From the NCBI GenBank assembly GCA_020845635.1, contig JADLFI010000001.1, positions 1,256 through 65,255 of the forward strand: 64,000 nt of DNA. Reading direction: 5' to 3'. Numbering within the stretch: the stretch's first letter is position 1; each line of letters starts with the position of its first letter. The notes beneath the pieces are model-generated. The model made no database searches, had not been told where the DNA came from, and was given only the letters and a program-made list of their open reading frames with translations. The translations under genes were made by a program, and so were the position numbers. Source of the stretch: Bacteroidia bacterium (GTDB lineage Bacteria > Bacteroidota > Bacteroidia > UBA4408). Below, piece after piece: positions 12,986 through 21,244 of this stretch.

Positions 12986-14425
12986 ATGAACCAAACCAAC
13001 CAACTGCAACAAACCAATTACAAAGCCTTAACATCATTGGTTACGGTATTCTTTTTTTGGGGCTTTGTAGCTGCCAGTAACGATATTTTAATTCCTGTAT
13101 TTAAAAGTGCATTCTCTTTAACCCAAAGGCAAAGTCAGTTGGTGTCTTTTGCGTTCTATATTGCTTACACTGTTGGTTCTATTATATATATGCTTATTTC
13201 TTTAGCGATAAAGCAAGATTTAATAAACAAAATGGGTTATAAAAATAGTTTGGCTTTGGGTTTATTTATTTCAGCTTTAGGTACTTTGTTGTTTTATCCG
13301 GCAGCAAACTTACATTCCTACCCATTAATGCTCATGGGCTTGTTTGTGGTGGCACTTGGTTTCTCATTACAGCAAACCGTGGCTAATCCCTTAGCTATTT
13401 CATTAGGCCCTCACCAAACCGGAGCCAACCGATTAACTTTGGCAGGAGGTATCAATAATTTTGGAACAAGTATAGGACCTTTAATTATCAGCTATGCTAT
13501 TTTTGGTTCTTCTACAAATACAGAAACCACAATGAACATTGAAGGGGTAAAAATTCCTTACCTTATTTTAGGCATTGCTTTTTTGTTGGTGGCGCTTATG
13601 TTGAAATTTTCTAAAATTCCCAACCACCCCGATGATGTTCAGGAAGATGTAAAAAGGAATGAACACGATCGCAAGTCGGCACTTCAATACCCGCAATTAG
13701 TGTTAGGAATGATAGCTATCTTTGTTTATGTTGGGGTAGAAGTTTCAACTGCAAGCAATTTGCCCTACTATATGGAACAAAAATTACATATAGAAACGCA
13801 GTACATTGCTCCTTATATTTCATTGTATTGGGCAAGTTTAATGATTGGTCGTTGGTCGGGTGCGGTGGAAGTATTAAGTGCCAAAAAGGAGGTTCAGCGC
13901 TTGTTGAAAATAGTTATGCCTTATTTGGCATTTGCAGCTTTTTTGCTTATAAACATTATTGCCGGCCATAACCTGGCGCCTTTTTATATGTATGCCGGTG
14001 TAATTATTTTATTGATTATTGCCGATATGATGAGTAATGGAAACCCTATACGTATGTTGTTGCTGTTTTCTATTATGGGGGCTTTGGGAATTCTTGTTGG
14101 AATGAATGCCGGGGGTATGATTAGTGTGTATGCCTTTACCAGCGTGGGTTTGTTTTGCAGCACTTTGTGGCCTTGCATTTTTGCACTCGCTATTAGCGGT
14201 TTAGGAAAAAATACAAGTCAGGGGAGCAGTTTTTTAATTATGATGATAATGGGTGGTGGAGTAGTTAGCTGGATACAAGGTTACGTAGCCGATAAAACAG
14301 ATATTGAAACAAGCTATTGGGTTGGTGTAATATGTTTCTTATATCTTATTTTTTATGCCATTGCCGTTAAACGCATTTTACATTTGCAAGGTATAAGTTA
14401 TGAAACCAACCAACTAAGCCACTAA
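12986..14425 (+). CDS. MFS sugar permease, FucP/GluP family
   Basis: VFFFWGF...NDILIP, LQQTVANP, YVGVEV, LWPCIFALA motifs; 12 or more TM segments. Confidence 0.88.
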   Translation: MNQTNQLQQTNYKALTSLVTVFFFWGFVAASNDILIPVFKSAFSLTQRQSQLVSFAFYIAYTVGSIIYMLISLAIKQDLINKMGYKNSLALGLFISALGTLLFYPAANLHSYPLMLMGLFVVALGFSLQQTVANPLAISLGPHQTGANRLTLAGGINNFGTSIGPLIISYAIFGSSTNTETTMNIEGVKIPYLILGIAFLLVALMLKFSKIPNHPDDVQEDVKRNEHDRKSALQYPQLVLGMIAIFVYVGVEVSTASNLPYYMEQKLHIETQYIAPYISLYWASLMIGRWSGAVEVLSAKKEVQRLLKIVMPYLAFAAFLLINIIAGHNLAPFYMYAGVIILLIIADMMSNGNPIRMLLLFSIMGALGILVGMNAGGMISVYAFTSVGLFCSTLWPCIFALAISGLGKNTSQGSSFLIMMIMGGGVVSWIQGYVADKTDIETSYWVGVICFLYLIFYAIAVKRILHLQGISYETNQLSH

Positions 14426-14514
14426 TTAATGCAATAAGAAGTATTGTCTGCCTTTTGATTGTGCGTTGGTGTTTGCCTTTTTTTCTTGTATGACTTGTTT
14501 GTTCTAATTTGTTC

Positions 14515-14633
14515 AATTACGAATTATTAATTATGAATTATGAATTACGAATTACGAATTGTTAATTACGAATTATGAATTACGAATTATGAATTATGAA
14601 TTACGAATTACGAATTATGAATTACGAATTACG
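14515..14633 (+). repeat. heptamer tandem array, 17 x AATTA(C/T)G-type units
   Basis: Parses cleanly into 17 units (aattacg, aattatg, plus one aattatt and one aattgtt); the last unit contains the TAA stop of the adjacent gene. Confidence 0.97.
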
Positions 14634-14982
14634 ATTTTTTTATTGTTGTTTGAATTTTTCCAATTATTCTACAAATTTCTTCACTGTCATTTATTAAACT
14701 ATCTGCCATTTCTTTCGACAAATAATCTGTTGCATATAGTAATTTTATCCAATACAAAGTTTCTCTAGCTTCTTTGTAGGCAATTGAAATTTTTGAAATA
14801 AAATCTGCTTTTGATTGCCCACCAATCGCTTCTTCTACATTTGCTCCAATAGATGTACCGCTTCGAAGCAGTTGTTTTGATAACACAAACTCTTTCTTTT
14901 CATTCCTTAAGATTTTATATGTGTTTACAATTCTAATTGCAAATGCAAAACTTTTTGTTTGAATAACGTTGTCCTCTTTCAT
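14629..14982 (-). CDS. four-helix-bundle protein (TIGR02436 / 23S-IVS-protein-like), copy 1, 117 aa
   Basis: KSFAFAIRIV...SKQLLRSGTSIGANVEEA...S.ADFISK.SI..KEARET.YWI.LL family pattern; start placed at ATG 14982 by alignment with copy 2. Confidence 0.9.
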   Translation of the reverse strand: MKEDNVIQTKSFAFAIRIVNTYKILRNEKKEFVLSKQLLRSGTSIGANVEEAIGGQSKADFISKISIAYKEARETLYWIKLLYATDYLSKEMADSLINDSEEICRIIGKIQTTIKKS

Positions 14983-14984
14983 TT

Positions 14985-15005
14985 CGTAATTTTTAATTCG
15001 TAATT
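14985..15005 (-). repeat. heptamer array, 3 units, inverted relative to 14515-14633
   Basis: Minus strand aattacg-aattaaa-aattacg, ending 2 nt before the ATG of copy 1. Confidence 0.85.
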
Positions 15006-15064
15006 GTTTCAACTCCCCAAACTTCACTGATTTTGTCTTTTATTTTTTGTTCAAAGATTTCAAA
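14993..15064 (-). pseudogene. orphan 3' end of a second M-S allele
   Basis: Translates as FEIFEQKIKDKISEVWGVETITN*, parallel to the M-S end ...QNQIKSVIDKVWGINENK*; an in-frame stop lies immediately upstream. Confidence 0.7.
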
Positions 15065-15069
15065 TTAAT

Positions 15070-15111
15070 AAATACGAATTACGAATTGTTAATTACGAAT
15101 TACGAATCACG
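15070..15111 (+). repeat. heptamer array, 6 units
   Basis: aaatacg-aattacg-aattgtt-aattacg-aattacg-aatcacg; the last unit contains the TGA stop of copy 2. Confidence 0.92.
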
Positions 15112-15460
15112 AGTGTTTCATTGTTATTTGAATTTTTCCGATAATTCTACAAATTTCTTCACAGTCATTTATTAAACTTTCTGCCATTTCTTTCGACAAA
15201 TAGTCTGTTGCATTTAGTAATTTTATCCAATACAAAGTTTCTCTAGCTTCTTTGTAGGTAATTGAAATTTTTGAAATAAAATCTGCTTTTGATTGCCCAC
15301 CAATGGCTTCTTCTACATTTGCTCCAATAGATGTACCGCTTCGAAGCAGTTGTTTTGATAACACAAACTCTTTCTTTTCATTCCTTAAGATTTTATATGT
15401 GTTTACAATTCTAATTGCAAATGCAAAAGACTTTTCTTGTATTACATTATTTGTTTTCAT
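15107..15460 (-). CDS. four-helix-bundle protein (TIGR02436-like), copy 2, 117 aa
   Basis: 107/117 aa identical to copy 1; its start overlaps the last 14 nt of the M-S frame. Confidence 0.9.
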   Translation of the reverse strand: MKTNNVIQEKSFAFAIRIVNTYKILRNEKKEFVLSKQLLRSGTSIGANVEEAIGGQSKADFISKISITYKEARETLYWIKLLNATDYLSKEMAESLINDCEEICRIIGKIQITMKHS

Positions 15461-15509
15461 TTATTCCCCAAACTTTATCAATTACAGATTTTATTTGATT
15501 TTGCTTCTC

Positions 15510-15537
15510 TGTAATTTTTAATTTGTAATTCGTAATT
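15510..15537 (-). repeat. heptamer array, 4 units, inside the M-S C-terminal helix (EITNYKLKITE)
   Basis: Minus strand aattacg-aattaca-aattaaa-aattaca. Confidence 0.85.
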
Positions 15538-16019
15538 TCTACCTCATAGCCTTCTATTTCGGCTACTATTTGTTGTTGTATTTCAAGTGGCGGAAGGGGG
15601 ATTTCTATTTCTGCTAAATCACTAGCAGTTATACTTGGATATTGTCCTTTACCACTCATCGCTACCATTTGTTCAACAATAACATCTTGATTTAATACAT
15701 AGTAAAGATACCTTCCTAAAACATTTTCATTTTCTGAAAGTACAGCAAACCCTGTTGAAGCAATGCAATTTTAGGAACATTTTCCATATATGCAAATGCT
15801 CTTAAATTTGGTCTTACTGTCGATACTAGAACATCACCATTTTTTACAACTCGTCTTGCTCTACTTGGCGCTTCATTAGGATTTATCCATTTGTTGAAAG
15901 AAACTTTTCCTGTTCCATTTTCAACTGCTTCAATATCGATATAAGCAAACGGCTCATTCTTAAAGATTTTTATTGGGTCAATTGCTTGTGAATTTATTTT
16001 GACAACATCACCAAGTTTC

Positions 16020-16054
16020 ACTAATTCGTAATTCGTAATTTTTAATTCTTCATT
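16020..16054 (-). repeat. heptamer array, 5 units, at the methyltransferase/TRD junction (NEELKITNYELV)
   Basis: Minus strand aatgaag-aattaaa-aattacg-aattacg-aattagt. Confidence 0.85.
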
Positions 16055-16135
16055 CTTAAAATACCTTTCACCACTCAACACCACATCTTTATTCGCTAAA
16101 ACCGTTTCCTTTTCAACCAAAGTTGCCATTTTTTC

Positions 16136-16241
16136 AATTACGAATGATGAATTACCAATTACGGTTTTCAAGGCAGTAAATATTTCATCTTTTGTAATTT
16201 CTAATTCGTAATTTGTAATTATTTCCTTGTAATTCGTAATT
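16136..16241. repeat. in-frame inverted heptamer pair inside hsdM (4-unit arm, 29-nt loop, 6-unit arm)
   Basis: Arms at 16136-16163 and 16193-16241; 22/28 matches in the inner register; translated AITNYKEIITNYELEITK...VIGNSSFVI. Confidence 0.85.
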
Positions 16242-16831
16242 GCCTCCAAAGCGGCAGGTAAATCGTTTTTATCAATTATTCTGCGTTGTGCTCCAAGGTC
16301 AAAACCATCGTTTTCAATTTTCAAAAACAAAATGTGTTGGCTTTTCTTCGCTAACTTTTTATCTAAAATCAATACACTTGTTTTTACTCCGCTATAGGGT
16401 TGAAACACGCCTGCGGGCAAACTAATCACGGCTATTAAACTATCTTGCACCAACATTTTTCGCAATTGTTTGTAAGCGGTTTGGCTGGTGGCTACTATGC
16501 CGTTGGGTACTACAATTCCTGCACGTCCGTTGCTGTTCAGGTGTTCGGCAATGTAATCGGTAAACAACACTTCGGCTTTGTTGGCTTGTACGCCAAATTT
16601 CTTGTGTGGTCGTATGCCACCTTTTGGTGTCATAAAGGGCGGGTTTGCCAATATCACATCAAAGGTTTCCTGCCAACGGTCTTCACTGCTCAAGGTATCG
16701 TATTCGTGTATTTGCGGTGTAGCAAAGCCGTGTAAATACATATTTGCTAAACTCAACCGCACCATATCGGGGCTAATGTCGTAACCCACTATGTTTTGCC
16801 CAAGTTTTCTGCGTTCGTCAGGTGTTAAGCC

Positions 16832-16907
16832 AATCACGAATTTAGAATTACGAATTGCGGGTTTGTTTTTGTCGCTGTTTGTAATTGGTAATTCGTCATT
16901 TTTAATT
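16832..16907. repeat. in-frame inverted heptamer pair inside hsdM (4-unit arm, 20-nt loop, 4-unit arm)
   Basis: Arms at 16832-16859 and 16880-16907; 19/28 matches; translated IKNDELPIT...AIRNSKFVI. Confidence 0.8.
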
Positions 16908-17509
16908 GAATTATTTAAGATGTGTTTGTATGCACTCAACAAGAAACCGGCCGTTCCGCAAGCAGGATCAAGCACAGTTTCGTTTTTCTGTGGGTTTACA
17001 CAAGCAGTTACAAAATCAATAATGTGTCGGGGTGTTCTAAACTGTCCTGCATCGCCTTGGCTTCCCATTACACTCAACAGATACTCAAAAGCATCGCCCA
17101 ACTTTTCGCTGTGGCTGTATTCGAACTCGTTGATGTATTTTAAAAATAGTTTCAGCGTGGCAGGGTCACGGTAGGGCAGGTAAGCATTTTTAAAAATGTT
17201 TCGGAACAGTTCGGGAATATTCGGATTGGTGTTTAGTTTTTCCAATGCCTCACTGTAAAGCGAAAGCATATCCTGTCCGCTTAATGATGGGTCGAATAAT
17301 TTACGCCAACCGTATTTGGCATAATTGCCTGTAAAAAACTTGGCTTTGCCTTTAAATTTCTCCACGGCTTCCTTATCCATATCGTCCATAAACTTATAGA
17401 TAAGAGCTAATGTAATTTGCTCAATTTGGCTTTTGGGGTCGGGCACTTTGCCTACCAGCACATCGCGGCAATCATCAATATTTTTTTTGGTTATGTTGTC
17501 GAGCATAGT

Positions 17510-18221
17510 CTGTTATAATCATTTCACCCCTTCGGGGTTTTATAATAATGTCAGCCCTTCGGGCTTTTTTGTTTATTCCATTACGTTTTTTTATAATCAT
17601 TTCTTTTTGTTTATTCCATTACGTTTTTTTTATAATCATTTCATTCTATAATCATTTCACCCCTTCGGGGTTATTGTTTATTCCTATATCATAATCCATA
17701 ATTATATCAGCCCTTCGGGCTTTTTTGTTTCATTATCTAATCCCGAAGGGATGATAATATTGTAACAAAAAATTCCCATACTGTTACCCAACCCCGAAGG
17801 GGTGGCATTATTCAATCCATTCAAACAAATATTTTTCATCATATTCCATTCCATAATTATATCAGCCCTTCGGGCTTTTTGTTTATTCCATTACGTTTTT
17901 TTTATAATCATTTCATTCTATAATCATTTCACCCCTCCGGGGTTTTTGTTTATTCCTATATCATAATCTATAATTATATCAGCCCTTCGGGCTTTTTTGT
18001 TTATTCCATTACGTTTTTTTTATAATCATTTCATTCTATAATCATTTCACCCCTTCGGGGTTATTGTTTATTCCTATATCATAATCTATAATTATATCAG
18101 CCCTTCGGGCTTTTATTCATTTCATCCCATCGGGTTTTTTGTTCCATTATCTAATCCCGAAGGGATGATAATATTGTAACAAAAAATTCCCATACTGTTA
18201 CCCAACCCCGTAGGGGTGGCA
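17510..18221. repeat. REP-like palindrome array (13 hairpins A(C/G/T)CCC-TTC/GAA-GGG(G/C/A)T plus one degenerate copy)
   Basis: ACCCCTTCGGGGT-type at 17526, 17659, 17931 (TCC loop), 18049; AGCCCTTCGGGCT at 17553, 17709, 17864, 17981, 18099; opposite-orientation ATCCCGAAGGGAT at 17740, 18154 and ACCCCG(A/T)AGGGGT at 17791, 18205; 117-118 bp higher-order period. Confidence 0.92.
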
Positions 18222-18683
18222 TTATTCAATCCATTCAAACAAATATTTTTCATCATGTTCAATCTCAAACTTCTTCAAAAAATCTATATACTCTTCCCTA
18301 AACGTTTTCACTTTATGATGTTCTTCCTGATTCAAAATGTAATTGTACACATTCTCAATATGCGAATGAGAATATGAAAACGCACCATAACCTTCTTGCC
18401 ATTGAAACTTTCCTTGTATCAACTTATTATCATTTATCCATTTGCTTGAGTTGTTTTTTATATCTCTAACCAAATCCGATATGAGCATAGATGGTTTCAA
18501 CCCAACAAAAACATGAATATGGTCGGGCATACCATTCACTATAATTGATTTCTGGTTCTTCGCTTTGATAATCCCTGCAATATATTTATGCAAATCATCT
18601 TTCCATGCCTTTCCAATTAAATTTGCTCTGCCTTTAACTGCAAAAACAATCTGAATATAAATTTGTGAAAATGTGCCTGACAT
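18222..18683 (-). mobile_element. IS200/IS605-like Y1 HUH transposase, probably REP-associated (RAYT)
   Basis: IQIVFAVKGR, DHIH (HUH), FQWQEGYGAFS, catalytic Y in YILNQEEHH; directly followed by the REP array; no tnpB. Confidence 0.88.
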
Positions 18684-18685
18684 AA

Positions 18686-21244
18686 TTAACTGTTTAAAAA
18701 TTTATTCAACGGAACGTATGTCTTAACATAGTTAGGCAGTTTGCTTTTCATTTCGTCCGGCACACGGTTAAAATCATCTACATTAAACGTTGGGTTGTGA
18801 TATAATTCGGTAAAATCTTGTTGGTCTATTATTTTTCTTACACTTGGATCGGTGATGTAGGCGTAAAAGAAATAGCGTAAACCTTGTAAATCATTAATGT
18901 CGGAAACATTGTTGGTGCTAAGGAATTTTTCAAATTCATCATTCAATAAATCGTCTTTCCCTTTTATTTGATTACCGAAATAAATAAGTTCCAACAATTC
19001 ACGCCAACTAATTTTACGGTCAATCTTTAACGATCTGCGAAGTTTTTCCAAATCAAAATATTCTTCGGGTTTGTTGTCGTATTTCTCTTTGGCTCTTGCT
19101 GTGGCGATTTCAACATCACCTGCTTCCATCAGTTGTTTTATTTCTTCATCGGTTTTTACTTTCTCCTCAAACTGCTGAAAAAACATTCGGTCAATCTTCA
19201 TTCCTGTAAAGTCAACTTGCTGTTCGTTCCAAGTGGCAATTTTGTCGTTCTCCTTGTATTCGTAACCGTCACGCTTTGGTTTTAGCGTATTGTCATCAAC
19301 TGTTGGAATGTCATCGCCTTGCTTAAAGTTTTTAGGCAGTTTTAATACTTGGTCGTACTGATATTTTTCTTCAAAGTATTCGCAAGTGGCAAAGAAGTCA
19401 AAGAGCTTAAAAGTGGCTTTGTCAATGGAAATTGTTTCTTCTTCTCCCAGTTCGTTTTTGAATTTATGCTCAAACGTGTGAACACGAGTTCCACGCCCTT
19501 TTATCTGTATAAATTCTGTTGGAGAAAATATCGGTCGCATTAAAGCTAAGTTCAAAATATTGGGGCAATCCCAACCTGTGGTCATCATGCCTACCGTTAC
19601 ACAAACTCTTGCTTTACTAGTTTTATAAGAATCTAAAATTTCATTGCCTTTTGCAAAATTGCTAAAGCCTAATAATTTGTCGTTACTGTAATCAACGGTC
19701 ATTTGCTGACTGTTTTGCACATTAGAAGTTACCTGAACGGCAAAGTCGCTTTGATACTTGCCGGGGAAATATTGATGTGCATATTCATTGAGTAATTGAG
19801 CCAATTTTGCAGCGTGATTTTGCGAAACGGCAAAAACTAAACTCTTTCCAAATTCTCCGTTAATCGGGTCTTTCAATCCATTTTCAATAAATGTTTTGCA
19901 AAACACTCGGTTGGTTTCATCGCTAAAAAATTTCCGCTCAAAGTGATTTTGTTTGTATTTCACTTCTTCCAAAACATCTTCCTGCTCGCTGGTGGCAACC
20001 GTAACCATTACGCCATAACCCTGCTCAGAAAGCAGTTTGGTAGTTACATCTGTTCTTGCATCCACAACAATAGGCTGTCGCAAATAGCCGTCTTTAGCAC
20101 CGTCCACAAGCGAATAACGATACGTTGGAATGCCACTCTCACAACCAAAGGTAGTGTAAGTGTCAAGCAACATTCTACGTTCAAGTTCTCTGGGGTCTTC
20201 AATATTTTCGGTGTCCAAATGTTTTAAATAGTCCTTTGGTGTGGCTGTCAAGCCCAATTTGTAACCCAAGAAATATTCAAACAAAGCTCGGCTGTTTCCA
20301 CCTCCTAACAATCGGTGCGATTCGTCAGAAATGATTAAATCAAAGTCGGTTGGTGAAAACAGTTTTTTGTATTTGTTATTCACCATTAACGATTGAATGG
20401 TAGTAACAACAATTTCTGCTTTTCTCCAGTCGTTGCGTTTTTCTTTGTAAACAACCGTTGTCAGGTCGTTCTTTAAATAGTTTGTAAAATCTTTTCTTGC
20501 TTGTTCTTCCAATTCCAAACGGTCAACCAAAAACAAAACTCGTCTTGCGTTGCCGGTTCTGTAAAACAATTTGATGATAGCAGCAGATGTCAGCGTTTTT
20601 CCTGTTCCTGTTGCCATTTCAAGCAAGAAACGTTTTTTGCCTTCGCTTACTGCTTTCTGAACGGCTTGAACTGCTTCAACTTGGTAATATCTTAAGAAGC
20701 GAAGTTTTAAATTGAAAATTAAGTCCTTCTTTTTCTGTTCGTCTTGAAACTCCGGTATTTGTTTGTAGTTTGGTAGCTGTGTCAATACAACATAGTCAGC
20801 ATTTACTTCTTCGCTAACTAATTTGTTCGGGTCGGGATTGAACTCATAATATTGTTTAATGGATTCCAATGTCGGGAAAACTTGAATTGGTTCAGGATTT
20901 CCGGATTCAATGTTCCATAAATAATGAAATGTGCCGTTAGATAGAATTACAAACTTTACTTTTTGCGACTTGGCGTAATTTCTTGCTTGTTCTTTTCCAA
21001 CAAGCGGATTCAGGCTTTCCTTTTTTGCTTCTAAAACAAGAACAGGATTTTGGTTTTCGTCAACTAATAAAAAGTCAATAAAGCCGTTTTTAGAATGTTC
21101 AAAATCTTCTCCTAAATCGTCCATTTTGATGGAAGATTCAAGTTTGATGGTGGCTTTACCTTTGTCCGTGTCAAAGAAACGCCAGCCAGCTTCTTCAAGC
21201 AGTTTGTTAATCTTAATTCTTGCCTTTGCTTCTTTTTCAGCCAT
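18686..21244 (-). CDS. hsdR: Type I restriction enzyme R subunit (EcoEI-like DEAD/DEAH helicase-nuclease)
   Basis: N-terminal PD-(D/E)xK (IDFLL...VLEAKK), MATGTGKT, DESHR, GLTATP, TTGWD, QIKGRGTR. Confidence 0.92.
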   Translation of the reverse strand: MAEKEAKARIKINKLLEEAGWRFFDTDKGKATIKLESSIKMDDLGEDFEHSKNGFIDFLLVDENQNPVLVLEAKKESLNPLVGKEQARNYAKSQKVKFVILSNGTFHYLWNIESGNPEPIQVFPTLESIKQYYEFNPDPNKLVSEEVNADYVVLTQLPNYKQIPEFQDEQKKKDLIFNLKLRFLRYYQVEAVQAVQKAVSEGKKRFLLEMATGTGKTLTSAAIIKLFYRTGNARRVLFLVDRLELEEQARKDFTNYLKNDLTTVVYKEKRNDWRKAEIVVTTIQSLMVNNKYKKLFSPTDFDLIISDESHRLLGGGNSRALFEYFLGYKLGLTATPKDYLKHLDTENIEDPRELERRMLLDTYTTFGCESGIPTYRYSLVDGAKDGYLRQPIVVDARTDVTTKLLSEQGYGVMVTVATSEQEDVLEEVKYKQNHFERKFFSDETNRVFCKTFIENGLKDPINGEFGKSLVFAVSQNHAAKLAQLLNEYAHQYFPGKYQSDFAVQVTSNVQNSQQMTVDYSNDKLLGFSNFAKGNEILDSYKTSKARVCVTVGMMTTGWDCPNILNLALMRPIFSPTEFIQIKGRGTRVHTFEHKFKNELGEEETISIDKATFKLFDFFATCEYFEEKYQYDQVLKLPKNFKQGDDIPTVDDNTLKPKRDGYEYKENDKIATWNEQQVDFTGMKIDRMFFQQFEEKVKTDEEIKQLMEAGDVEIATARAKEKYDNKPEEYFDLEKLRRSLKIDRKISWRELLELIYFGNQIKGKDDLLNDEFEKFLSTNNVSDINDLQGLRYFFYAYITDPSVRKIIDQQDFTELYHNPTFNVDDFNRVPDEMKSKLPNYVKTYVPLNKFLNS

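Follow-up and report, generated by a model that had tools for sequence, protein, structure and literature searches.

Heptanucleotide repeats are known from cyanobacteria as short tandemly repeated repetitive sequences (STRR). Simple sequence repeats (SSRs) with a period of seven are common in prokaryotes, and an excess of heptamers has been noted by Mrazek et al. In Xanthomonas, GGGAATC repeats form 70-75 convergent inverted pairs per genome, with 55% of the neighbouring genes annotated as 'hypothetical', and no link to an element was made (PMC4692102). Tandem heptamers are also found in the 23S rRNA intervening sequence (IVS) of Coxiella, in which two to three GACAGAT repeats, in strain-variable number, lie directly 5' of the ATG of an S23p (PF05635) open reading frame (ORF). 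A terminal stem of 28 bp closes this IVS, and RNase III removes it by cleavage that was located, on the 5' side, at the first repeat (PMC4990558). A PF05635-related, pentameric four-helix-bundle fold is found in Avd, the accessory protein of diversity-generating retroelements (DGRs) (PMC10053308). Here we describe two copies of a compact, promoter-less cassette in a 64,000-nucleotide (nt) stretch of DNA from a Bacteroidia bacterium (contig JADLFI010000001.1; hereafter the window, with positions counted from its first letter), in which an ORF of the PF05635/TIGR02436 family, encoding a four-helix-bundle (4HB) protein, has its start and stop codons abutting or inside inverted heptamer arrays (Table 1).

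By analogy, the window cassettes are best read as the same type of element as the ORF-bearing 23S rRNA IVS, here situated in protein-coding transcripts. We consider it probable that they are selfish, IVS-type cassettes residing in mRNA, which would depend on the upstream host gene for transcription, whose two arms would pair into a stem of ~30 bp with the ORF enclosed as the loop, and whose stem would probably be cut by RNase III, as is that of the rRNA element, freeing the ORF RNA from the host transcript. The arrays would probably serve, in addition, as recognition sites of the encoded pentameric protein, and would be recombinogenic, so that cassettes could be duplicated, exchanged and lost at them. 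The ORF-in-a-stem architecture and its link to the 23S rRNA IVS had been put forward in the original prediction from the letters of the window, and both gain weight from Coxiella, where the heptamers reach the S23p start and RNase III cuts there.

The cluster of arrays is sharply delimited. All 31 matches to AATTACGAATTACG (at most two mismatches, both strands) fall within 14515-16900, while shuffled sequences give an expectation of 0.97 and a largest count of 5; a rotation-independent scan resolves nine AATTACG-type arrays and shows isolated single heptamers only beyond 14515-16901, so that both scans agree with the earlier claim of nine arrays within 2.4 kb and none elsewhere. Unrelated AT-rich microsatellites that cluster by chance might be imagined in an AT-rich genome (34% GC), given how common period-7 SSRs are in prokaryotes, yet the excess over expectation, its confinement to 2.4 kb, and the inverted pairing, covariation and enrichment beside homologues in ~100 loci (see below) leave this explanation with a negligible probability. 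With A standing for AATTACG-type and B for CGTAATT-type arrays, the order on the plus strand is A[gene]B, A[gene]B, B, A-B, A-B, that is, two gene-bracketing inverted pairs, two ORF-less pairs and one solo array. The long-range pairs noted previously, 15005-14985 with 14633-14515 and 15537-15510 with 15111-15070, indeed have the two PF05635 genes between their arms, and AATTAAAAAT(T/G)AC can be read directly, as claimed, in four of the five minus-strand AATTACG arms. All inverted pairs belong to the AATTACG-first class, and CGTAATT-first was never seen; the earlier statement that, on the transcribed strand, CGTAATT arms always come after AATTACG arms is, however, a symmetry tautology of any inverted repeat and uninformative on gene orientation. 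A stop-free 5' arm combined with a 3' arm that closes all frames was considered as the cause of the AATTACG-first class and rejected, as this is true for AATTACG but not generally: the 5' unit is without a stop in only 29 of 75 loci, and distinct units show no bias. The longest array of the window (14515-14634) is reported by Tandem Repeats Finder with period 7 (17.1 copies) and also with period 21 (5.7 copies). The 21-nt super-period, AATTACG AATTACG AATTATG with 87% matches, corresponds to three units or two turns of B-DNA, and codon constraint is no explanation for it, as this array is non-coding.

The two 4HB proteins score 97.4 and 96.9 bits against PF05635 (cut-off 33.8) and 105.7 and 104.7 bits against TIGR02436 (cut-off 24), and their closest solved structure is PDB 2RLD (E=1e-35, residues 4-115), which has five chains; Avd was not reached when the 4HB family profile was compared with the PDB. 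No nuclease, recombinase or polymerase domain was detected in the 117-amino-acid (aa) protein, no model for the protein was found in PADLOC, and Rfam gave no family match in 14300-18400. The genes near the two cassettes are hutH, hisS, transporters and restriction-modification (R-M) genes, and no reverse transcriptase domain was found in the genes within 6 kb on either side. The distance from the 5' array to the 4HB start is 0 nt for gene 1 and 50 nt for gene 2, while the stop codon of each gene (..AAA TCG TAA) sits within its 3' array; the GTG at 15027 that is listed as the start of gene 1 results from extending the frame upstream across the 5' arm. In the minimum free energy (MFE) fold of cassette 2 the arms pair with each other (-96 kcal/mol, z=-3.27), and the ORF-less pairs are predicted to fold as hairpins. 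The two genes are 91% identical, with a nearly identical central 280 nt and an identical core of 125 nt, which points to duplication or conversion within the genome. In five Logan contigs (L095-L099; L numbers label the loci and contigs compared), aligned to window positions 17580-14588, a single chimeric 4HB gene joins the 5' end of gene 2 to the 3' end of gene 1 and the long array. A deletion allele that arose when the tandem copies recombined would give such contigs, but they were rejected as proof of one, as an assembly artefact across the 125-nt identical core is possible.

The same architecture is found far beyond this genome. A search for PF05635/TIGR02436 proteins gave at least 8000 clusters at 90% identity, and a scan of one genome per species gave more than 560 relatives of the window proteins, of which the 80 best (59-85% identity) were analysed, so that the sample is biased to top matches; the array detector was conservative, and ORF orientation was taken from raw ORFs. 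These 80 best relatives span more than 10 phyla, with Bacteroidota, Cyanobacteria, Patescibacteria, Chloroflexota, Planctomycetota, Verrucomicrobiota, Acidobacteriota and several proteobacterial classes among the groups represented. Inverted heptanucleotide arrays bracket 4HB homologues in 80 genome loci, 18 plasmid loci and the accB-accC operons of Xanthomonadales. A period-7 array is present on at least one side in 71 of 75 evaluable homologues, and on both sides in 44, while 153 of 249 arrays (61%) lie within 200 nt of a 4HB gene, a zone which makes up 9% of the sequence. Enrichment of arrays near homologues, the orientation of their arms and the existence of variant alleles had been named beforehand as the points on which the proposal should be judged, and all three came out in its favour: arrays are ~15-fold enriched beside 4HB homologues, the arms are complementary and covary, and forms with and without arms, or with and without the second target recognition domain (TRD2) of the host gene, exist. 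Paired arms are most often 340-420 nt apart, which is the length of the ORF, about ten pairs being ORF-less, and the stop codon lies within the 3' array in 47 of 77 loci. Arms of the genome loci have a median of 4.3 and a maximum of 22 units, and copy number is unequal between arms, variable among loci and different even at orthologous cassettes of related species, as in L054 and L056.

AATTACG is one of several units, with AATTAGG and GGGAATC as other types across loci, and the plasmid homologues (34-57% identity) all have arms, made of quite different yet complementary units. These are TACCAGT/ACTGGTC, AATTCAA/TTTGAAT, AAGTCGG/CGACTTC, ATTTTAG/CTAAAAT, GATGAAG/TTCATAA, CAATTCG/CGAATTG and GTAAAAA/CTTTTTA, and in one case a composite, CCCCAAT+CGTAAAT, is mirrored by ACGATTT+GGGATTT. 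A run of 37 units follows a 4HB gene at 1032-1291 of L114. At L117 the arms (520-600 and 970-1030) have only ~2 units, and outside them a perfect, non-repetitive 25-nt inverted repeat lengthens the stem. Some cassettes (L020, L008, L010, L023, L012) carry an extra local A-B hairpin directly before or after the 4HB gene, hence an arm could pair either locally or with the distant arm, the two structures being mutually exclusive. As the family profile reached the XCC0516 subfamily at E=0.05 only, a fragment of XCC0516 was used as a separate query, which showed that a 4HB gene of this type lies between accB and accC in Xanthomonas and Rhodanobacter, with GGGAATC-type arrays upstream and their complement downstream. 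In L106-L110 (Xanthomonas arboricola and Rhodanobacter) the 3' array extends as far as the start codon of accC, within the essential accB-accC operon, and these arrays are the published 'G-quadruplex' heptamer repeats.

The two arms of a cassette are matched to each other. Between the 5' unit and the reverse complement of the 3' unit the mean Hamming distance is 0.81, whereas direct comparison gives 2.60 and permutation of partners among loci gives 1.42 (lowest value in 2000 permutations, 1.15). Likewise, cognate flanks form duplexes of -34.8 kcal/mol, non-cognate flanks of -25.5 and shuffled ones of -20.4, and the cognate partner outdoes each of 12 random ones in 32 of 86 loci (expectation, 6.6). 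These tests were made at the level of units and duplexes instead of with a covariance model, because unit sequence and arm length are too variable for one alignment. The upstream gene is co-oriented with the cassette in 54 of 58 loci, and the downstream gene is co-oriented in 36 and convergent in 18, divergent cases being absent, so that the cassette looks promoter-less and appears to ride on, or to end, a host transcript.

Selection acts on the protein as well as on the arms. In comparisons of the window genes with L100 or L001, the ratio of nonsynonymous to synonymous divergence (dN/dS) of the 4HB gene is 0.07-0.1 at a dS of ~1 to 1.1, hence the protein is under purifying selection and functional. 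Between the window and L100, the 4HB genes (dS ~1.1) are far more diverged than the adjacent methylase (~93% nt identity), which indicates that cassettes are exchanged at a fixed site. Across loci, GC and third-position GC (GC3, range 0.10 to 0.79) of the ORF track host GC (r=0.93 and 0.90), while arm GC barely does so (r=0.22), AT-rich units of the AATT type persisting in hosts with 60-67% GC. In Nostoc, there are three protein clades, each with its own unit, and two clades with their two units occur within one organism on pNPUN01 and pNPUN02 of N. punctiforme, on plasmids b and c of ATCC 53789 and on plasmids F and G of C057; this test compares whole organisms by way of their plasmids, as no single locus holds two diverged 4HB clades. 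The unit sequence is thus constrained beyond pairing, and it follows the protein clade and neither the host nor host GC. Since the unit is conserved with the clade regardless of host composition, the arrays are probably recognition sites of the encoded protein.

In the window, the cassettes follow a Type I R-M gene that fuses a methylase (HsdM) to a specificity module (M-S) with one target recognition domain (TRD) and one conserved region (CR). Type I features are present, namely an HsdR with ResIII and an N-terminal nuclease region and an HsdM with N6_Mtase, while the specificity module, instead of the two TRDs and two conserved regions of an intact one, has a single TRD and a broken frame. 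The frame is broken in TRD1 by a 1-nt deletion in an A-run (15769-15772; A4 as against A5 in L100, ..VPKNC..), beside an intact hsdR. The 12.3 kb around the locus are identical between two public metagenome-assembled genomes (MAGs), and the frameshift recurs in several independent read-set assemblies in addition to the two MAGs, hence it is real and no sequencing error. In L100, a close relative whose methylase part is ~93% identical at the nt level, hsdR is accompanied by an intact 858-aa two-TRD M-S gene and one cassette. Compared with it, a 5' arm, a 20-codon leader, 4HB gene 2 and a 3' arm stand in the window in place of TRD2 and the head of CR2, and cassette 1, which lies beyond the CR2 remnant (15009-15069), is the positional equivalent of the cassette of L100. 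The leader EKQNQIKSVIDKVWGINENK provides a new C-terminus for M-S, while its homologue in L100 is a free mini-ORF ahead of the 4HB gene. The leader arrangement of cassette 2 is shared by L014 and L019, which encode an intact half-size M-S (junction EIEGYQ-EEITNYELEIT-K..KI..I..VWGEDE, then stop), followed by the cassette and then by the CR2 remnant, whereas L012 and L029 have a full two-TRD gene and then a cassette, all four being more distant R-M relatives (59-62% identity); the full-length M-S forms of L012, L029 and L100 have 846-858 aa. To judge from these alignments, the cassette and its arrays mark the junctions of specificity-module remodelling in this M-S family, and the link to R-M is incidental in kind yet real in effect, as one cassette has replaced TRD2 and converted a two-TRD module into a half-size one. 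The original prediction had coupled the cassettes to the specificity end of the R-M system, which holds for these junctions but not as a defining property, as homologous cassettes lie in RND (resistance-nodulation-division) efflux, accB-accC, cas1/cas2 and helicase/methylase contexts.

Three further arrays or pairs are translated in frame within the M-S gene, where they encode ITNYEL-type peptides. The site in the M/S linker holds an arm pair in L029 and a degenerate one in L012, and none in L014, L019 and L100; the window pair at this site (16136-16243) and the solo array (16020-16048) both replace segments of similar length in L100. A target-site duplication was looked for at the insertion by comparison with L100, and none was visible. 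A possible second hairpin at the M/S linker of L100 was discarded, as it folds no better than shuffles (z=-1.2). Phase variation driven by SSRs is well known for Type I and Type III R-M genes, and heptamers within the M-S ORF and at its 3' end could in principle switch its specificity or expression, as slippage by 7 nt, which is no multiple of 3, shifts the frame, and copy number does differ at orthologous cassettes such as those of L054 and L056. However, the arrays within the ORF are imperfect, with at most two consecutive units identical, the M-S region shows zero gaps over nine independent assemblies (two MAGs and at least seven read-set assemblies), the actual frameshift lies in an A-run outside the arrays, and arrays accompany 4HB genes in operons of all kinds. 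Phase variation as the primary explanation is therefore largely refuted, and we regard it as very improbable.

Table 1. Cassettes, arrays and R-M genes in the window; array types refer to the plus strand.
Feature	Position	Strand	Remarks
3' arm, cassette 1	14515-14634	-	AATTACG-type; 17 units CGTAATT/CATAATT (minus-strand reading); holds stop codon of 4HB gene 1
4HB gene 1	14629-14982	-	117 aa; ATG at 14982; tblastn 14982-14632
5' arm, cassette 1	14983-15008	-	CGTAATT-type; AATTACGAATTAAAAATTACGAA; abuts ATG of 4HB gene 1 directly
CR2 tail, remnant of original M-S C-terminus	15009-15069	-	Non-coding; FEIFEQKIKDKISEVWGVE; orthologous to M-S end of L100
3' arm, cassette 2	15070-15112	-	AATTACG-type; holds stop codon of 4HB gene 2; partner of 15510-15541 in MFE fold
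4HB gene 2	15107-15460	-	117 aa
Cassette leader	15447-15509	-	Final 20 codons of M-S gene (EKQNQIKSVIDKVWGINENK, then stop); overlaps start of 4HB gene 2
5' arm, cassette 2	15510-15541	-	CGTAATT-type; in-frame part of M-S conserved-region helix (EITNYKLKIT)
Type I M-S fusion	15447-17506	-	HsdM + one TRD + one conserved region; Pfam N6_Mtase, HsdM_N, Methylase_S; PADLOC MTase_I, 304 bits
Solo in-frame array	16020-16048	-	CGTAATT-type; start of TRD1 (ELKITNYEL); replaces L100 segment of nearly equal length (3 nt shorter)
ORF-less inverted arm pair	16136-16243	-	AATTACG-type 16136-16164, CGTAATT-type 16194-16243; M/S linker; in-frame translation ITNYKEIITNYELEIT ... VIGNSSFVIE
ORF-less inverted arm pair	16836-16901	-	AATTACG-type 16836-16860, CGTAATT-type 16878-16901; variable loop of methyltransferase domain; hairpin z=-3.1
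Y1 transposase gene	18222-18683	-	IS200/IS605-type
hsdR	18686-21244	-	ResIII, HSDR_N_2; match to EcoAI-family R subunit below curated cut-off; PADLOC REase_I

The level at which the arms act, RNA or DNA, bears on the account of an mRNA-borne, IVS-type cassette. Among the sense-strand mismatches of 72 cognate stems, which have a median span of 30 nt and 1924 Watson-Crick pairs in all, 42 are G.U and 61 are A.C, and per locus G.U exceeds A.C in 12 cases and A.C exceeds G.U in 25, so that the G.U excess expected from selection on the transcribed strand is absent. Closure of the stem would have to span 350-400 nt of translated RNA, and the Coxiella IVS ORF is apparently untranslated and decaying, unlike the window genes (PMC4990558). 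The pair at 16836-16901 has arms of 30 and 24 nt around a 23-nt segment which matches host sequence of L100 at 16 of 23 positions, a match on which its probable host origin rests; with a host-like loop, insertion of a ready-made hairpin is insufficient as an explanation. The cassettes are not accompanied by a recombinase or a reverse transcriptase, and binding of the protein to the arrays is a pure inference. All of these points weigh against the favoured account, and DNA-level processes could lie behind the arm complementarity.

If the element worked at the DNA level, the arrays would be terminal repeats or binding sites, on single- or double-stranded DNA, for the 4HB protein or a host factor, they would serve insertion, copy-back synthesis or recombination, and the RNA stem would be an unprocessed by-product. 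Besides the missing G.U excess and the arms around a probable host segment, this would agree with units that are conserved against host GC drift and follow the protein clade, with unequal and variable copy number, with the exchange implied by a cassette dS of ~1.1 between flanks of ~93% nt identity, and with the coincidence of M-S rearrangement junctions with arrays. On the other hand, co-orientation with the upstream gene and arms placed at start and stop codons fit a unit of the transcript, the stem of the homologous rRNA element is demonstrably cut by RNase III, and the 117-aa protein is without a detected nuclease, recombinase or polymerase domain. A purely DNA-level element is hence a rather unlikely alternative to the transcript-borne IVS-type cassette, and both levels may be at work.

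The genes that host the cassettes are of many kinds, comprising RND adaptor|pump, accB|accC, cas2|cas1, hsdS|hsdR, helicase|methylase and DUF1156|HEPN junctions, a tRNA gene and many housekeeping operons, hence the element is not specific for R-M. R-M and other defence neighbours are over-represented (~9 of 80 genome loci and half of ten annotated plasmid loci), by a rough count uncorrected for shared ancestry. Placement in CRISPR adaptation modules is recurrent: in L082, L116 and L118 (plasmids of Anabaena, Nostoc and Pseudanabaena) cassettes of the GTAAAAA clade lie between cas2 and cas1 on the opposite strand, and another lies just upstream of cas1. A CAATTCG-clade cassette in L112, L113 and L115 (Nostoc plasmids) has a small ORF on either side, one of which is annotated as a fragment of a DNA cytosine methyltransferase, and may split a gene. 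The cassette of L076 (4871-5002) lies ~20 nt past a tRNA-Ser gene, with five more CCTAATT arrays in the upstream 1.2 kb.

Such settings could also be those of a domesticated regulatory module, in which hairpin and small protein would serve the host operon by translational coupling, mRNA stabilisation, insulation or control of defence genes, and would be inherited vertically or with the operon instead of being mobile. A position kept from one family to another in some operons (between accB and accC of Xanthomonas and Rhodanobacter; between RND adaptor and pump of several Bacteroidota), amelioration of the ORF to host GC, which implies long residence, purifying selection on the protein and frequent placement in defence operons would all be accounted for. 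Contexts that are extremely diverse and unrelated would not, nor would arm pairs that are present or absent among close relatives, replacement of the cassette at one site, proteins that are 60-85% identical over more than 10 phyla, or ORF-less pairs inside coding sequence, and domestication is therefore judged improbable.

The Y1 transposase gene next to the M-S gene was considered as the mobiliser of the cassettes and rejected, as it goes with separate GC-hairpin repeats and is missing from nearly all other cassette loci. The spacer between the Y1 and M-S genes (17513-18180) holds at least 13 copies of a ~28-nt unit, TATAATCATTTCACCCCTTCGGGGTTTT, which forms a small GC hairpin, resembles repetitive extragenic palindromic (REP) sequences and is confined to this spacer within the window (11 core matches as against 0.7 expected). 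In L100 the same Y1 gene likewise lies between hsdR and M-S, and the gene and its repeats look like a pair of REP and REP-associated tyrosine transposase (RAYT) type lodged in the R-M operon. In L012, the interval from hsdR to M-S contains 32 AATTACG units (1848-2386); their partner is a CCTAATT array, and the 63-aa ORF enclosed by the pair does not belong to the 4HB type.

Few small proteins without an explanation are as common in Bacteroidota, Cyanobacteria and many other phyla as those of the PF05635/TIGR02436 family, and heptanucleotide arrays, inverted heptamer pairs and ORF-bearing rRNA IVSs have been described separately and so far without a function; the comparative data join them as one architecture. 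It is conceivable, though we hold it rather doubtful, that they form one pan-bacterial selfish class of inverted heptanucleotide arrays with a PF05635 gene, of which the rRNA IVSs would be a special case, in which each clade of the Avd-like pentameric protein would recognise and maintain its cognate unit at the DNA or the RNA level, perhaps through templated addition of repeats or through copy-back, and in which ORF-less pairs would be non-autonomous members served in trans. Such a class would explain much of the heptanucleotide excess of prokaryotes, including cyanobacterial STRR and the Xanthomonas GGGAATC pairs, and would remodel host genes in frame, R-M specificity subunits included. The element also gives rise to in-frame variants of proteins and to remodelled operons, and within this R-M family the change between two-TRD and half-size specificity modules is marked by it, which is relevant to methylomes and to the defence islands where cassettes are frequent. 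The arrays also break short-read assemblies and mislead gene callers, giving rise to spurious ITNYELR ORFs and extended start codons.

Several components of this architecture were already known, namely PF05635 ORFs in rRNA IVSs and their excision by RNase III, the Coxiella heptamers, the heptamer SSR excess, the Xanthomonas pairs, STRR and the homology to Avd. The label 'undescribed' in the original prediction has thus to be narrowed, as Coxiella heptamers, GGGAATC pairs and STRR are published, and it stands for their connection, as they have not been connected to one another or to PF05635 genes. The general rule that inverted heptamer arrays bracket PF05635 genes appears unreported in the literature searched: no work was found that links heptamer arrays generally to PF05635 genes outside rRNA or that mentions these repeat strings, which is no proof of absence.

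Like ORF-bearing rRNA IVSs, the cassettes carry a PF05635 ORF in the sense of the host transcript, on the same strand as M-S, enclosed by terminal inverted repeats (15510-15541 with 15070-15112, and 14983-15008 with 14515-14634), and ORF-less versions exist of both. As in Coxiella, heptamer tandem repeats of variable copy number abut the start codon, here as AATTACG units at gene 1. In contrast to rRNA IVSs, the host is a protein-coding operon, even the interior of an ORF, instead of an rRNA gene, and the arms are longer, reaching 17-37 units; in contrast to the Coxiella ORF, the 4HB protein is under strong purifying selection. With heptanucleotide SSRs the arrays share 7-nt tandem units, often in convergent inverted pairs, and an intergenic location, while the Xanthomonas papers treat the repeats as SSRs or G-quadruplex (G4) motifs and leave PF05635 genes unmentioned (PMC4692102). 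The TAACTGA direct repeats of Beggiatoaceae were set aside as a different phenomenon.

Rickettsia palindromic elements and repeats of the REP type or the miniature inverted-repeat transposable element (MITE) type are short palindromes without a transposase of their own, some of which lie in frame in genes and are translated. Two ORF-less pairs are likewise translated within the M-S gene, and ORF-carrying and ORF-less cassettes resemble an autonomous element and its MITE. Unlike such palindromes, the arms are heptamer arrays of variable length and no fixed sequence, and one pair flanks host-like sequence; unlike in a transposon, the ORF of the cassette encodes a 117-aa helical bundle, and no transposase is part of the cassette. 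With Avd, the 4HB protein probably shares a PF05635-related pentameric fold, its match PDB 2RLD having five chains, whereas reverse transcriptase and the template and variable repeats (TR/VR) of a DGR are absent from the vicinity of the cassettes. Truncated, half-size HsdS proteins can act as dimers. The M-TRD1-CR form left after loss of TRD2 from between the two conserved regions, which is intact in L014 and L019, is likewise half-size, while it differs from known half-size HsdS in that the deletion junction is a heptamer array, the cassette leader forms a new C-terminal helix, and the gene of the window is frameshifted.

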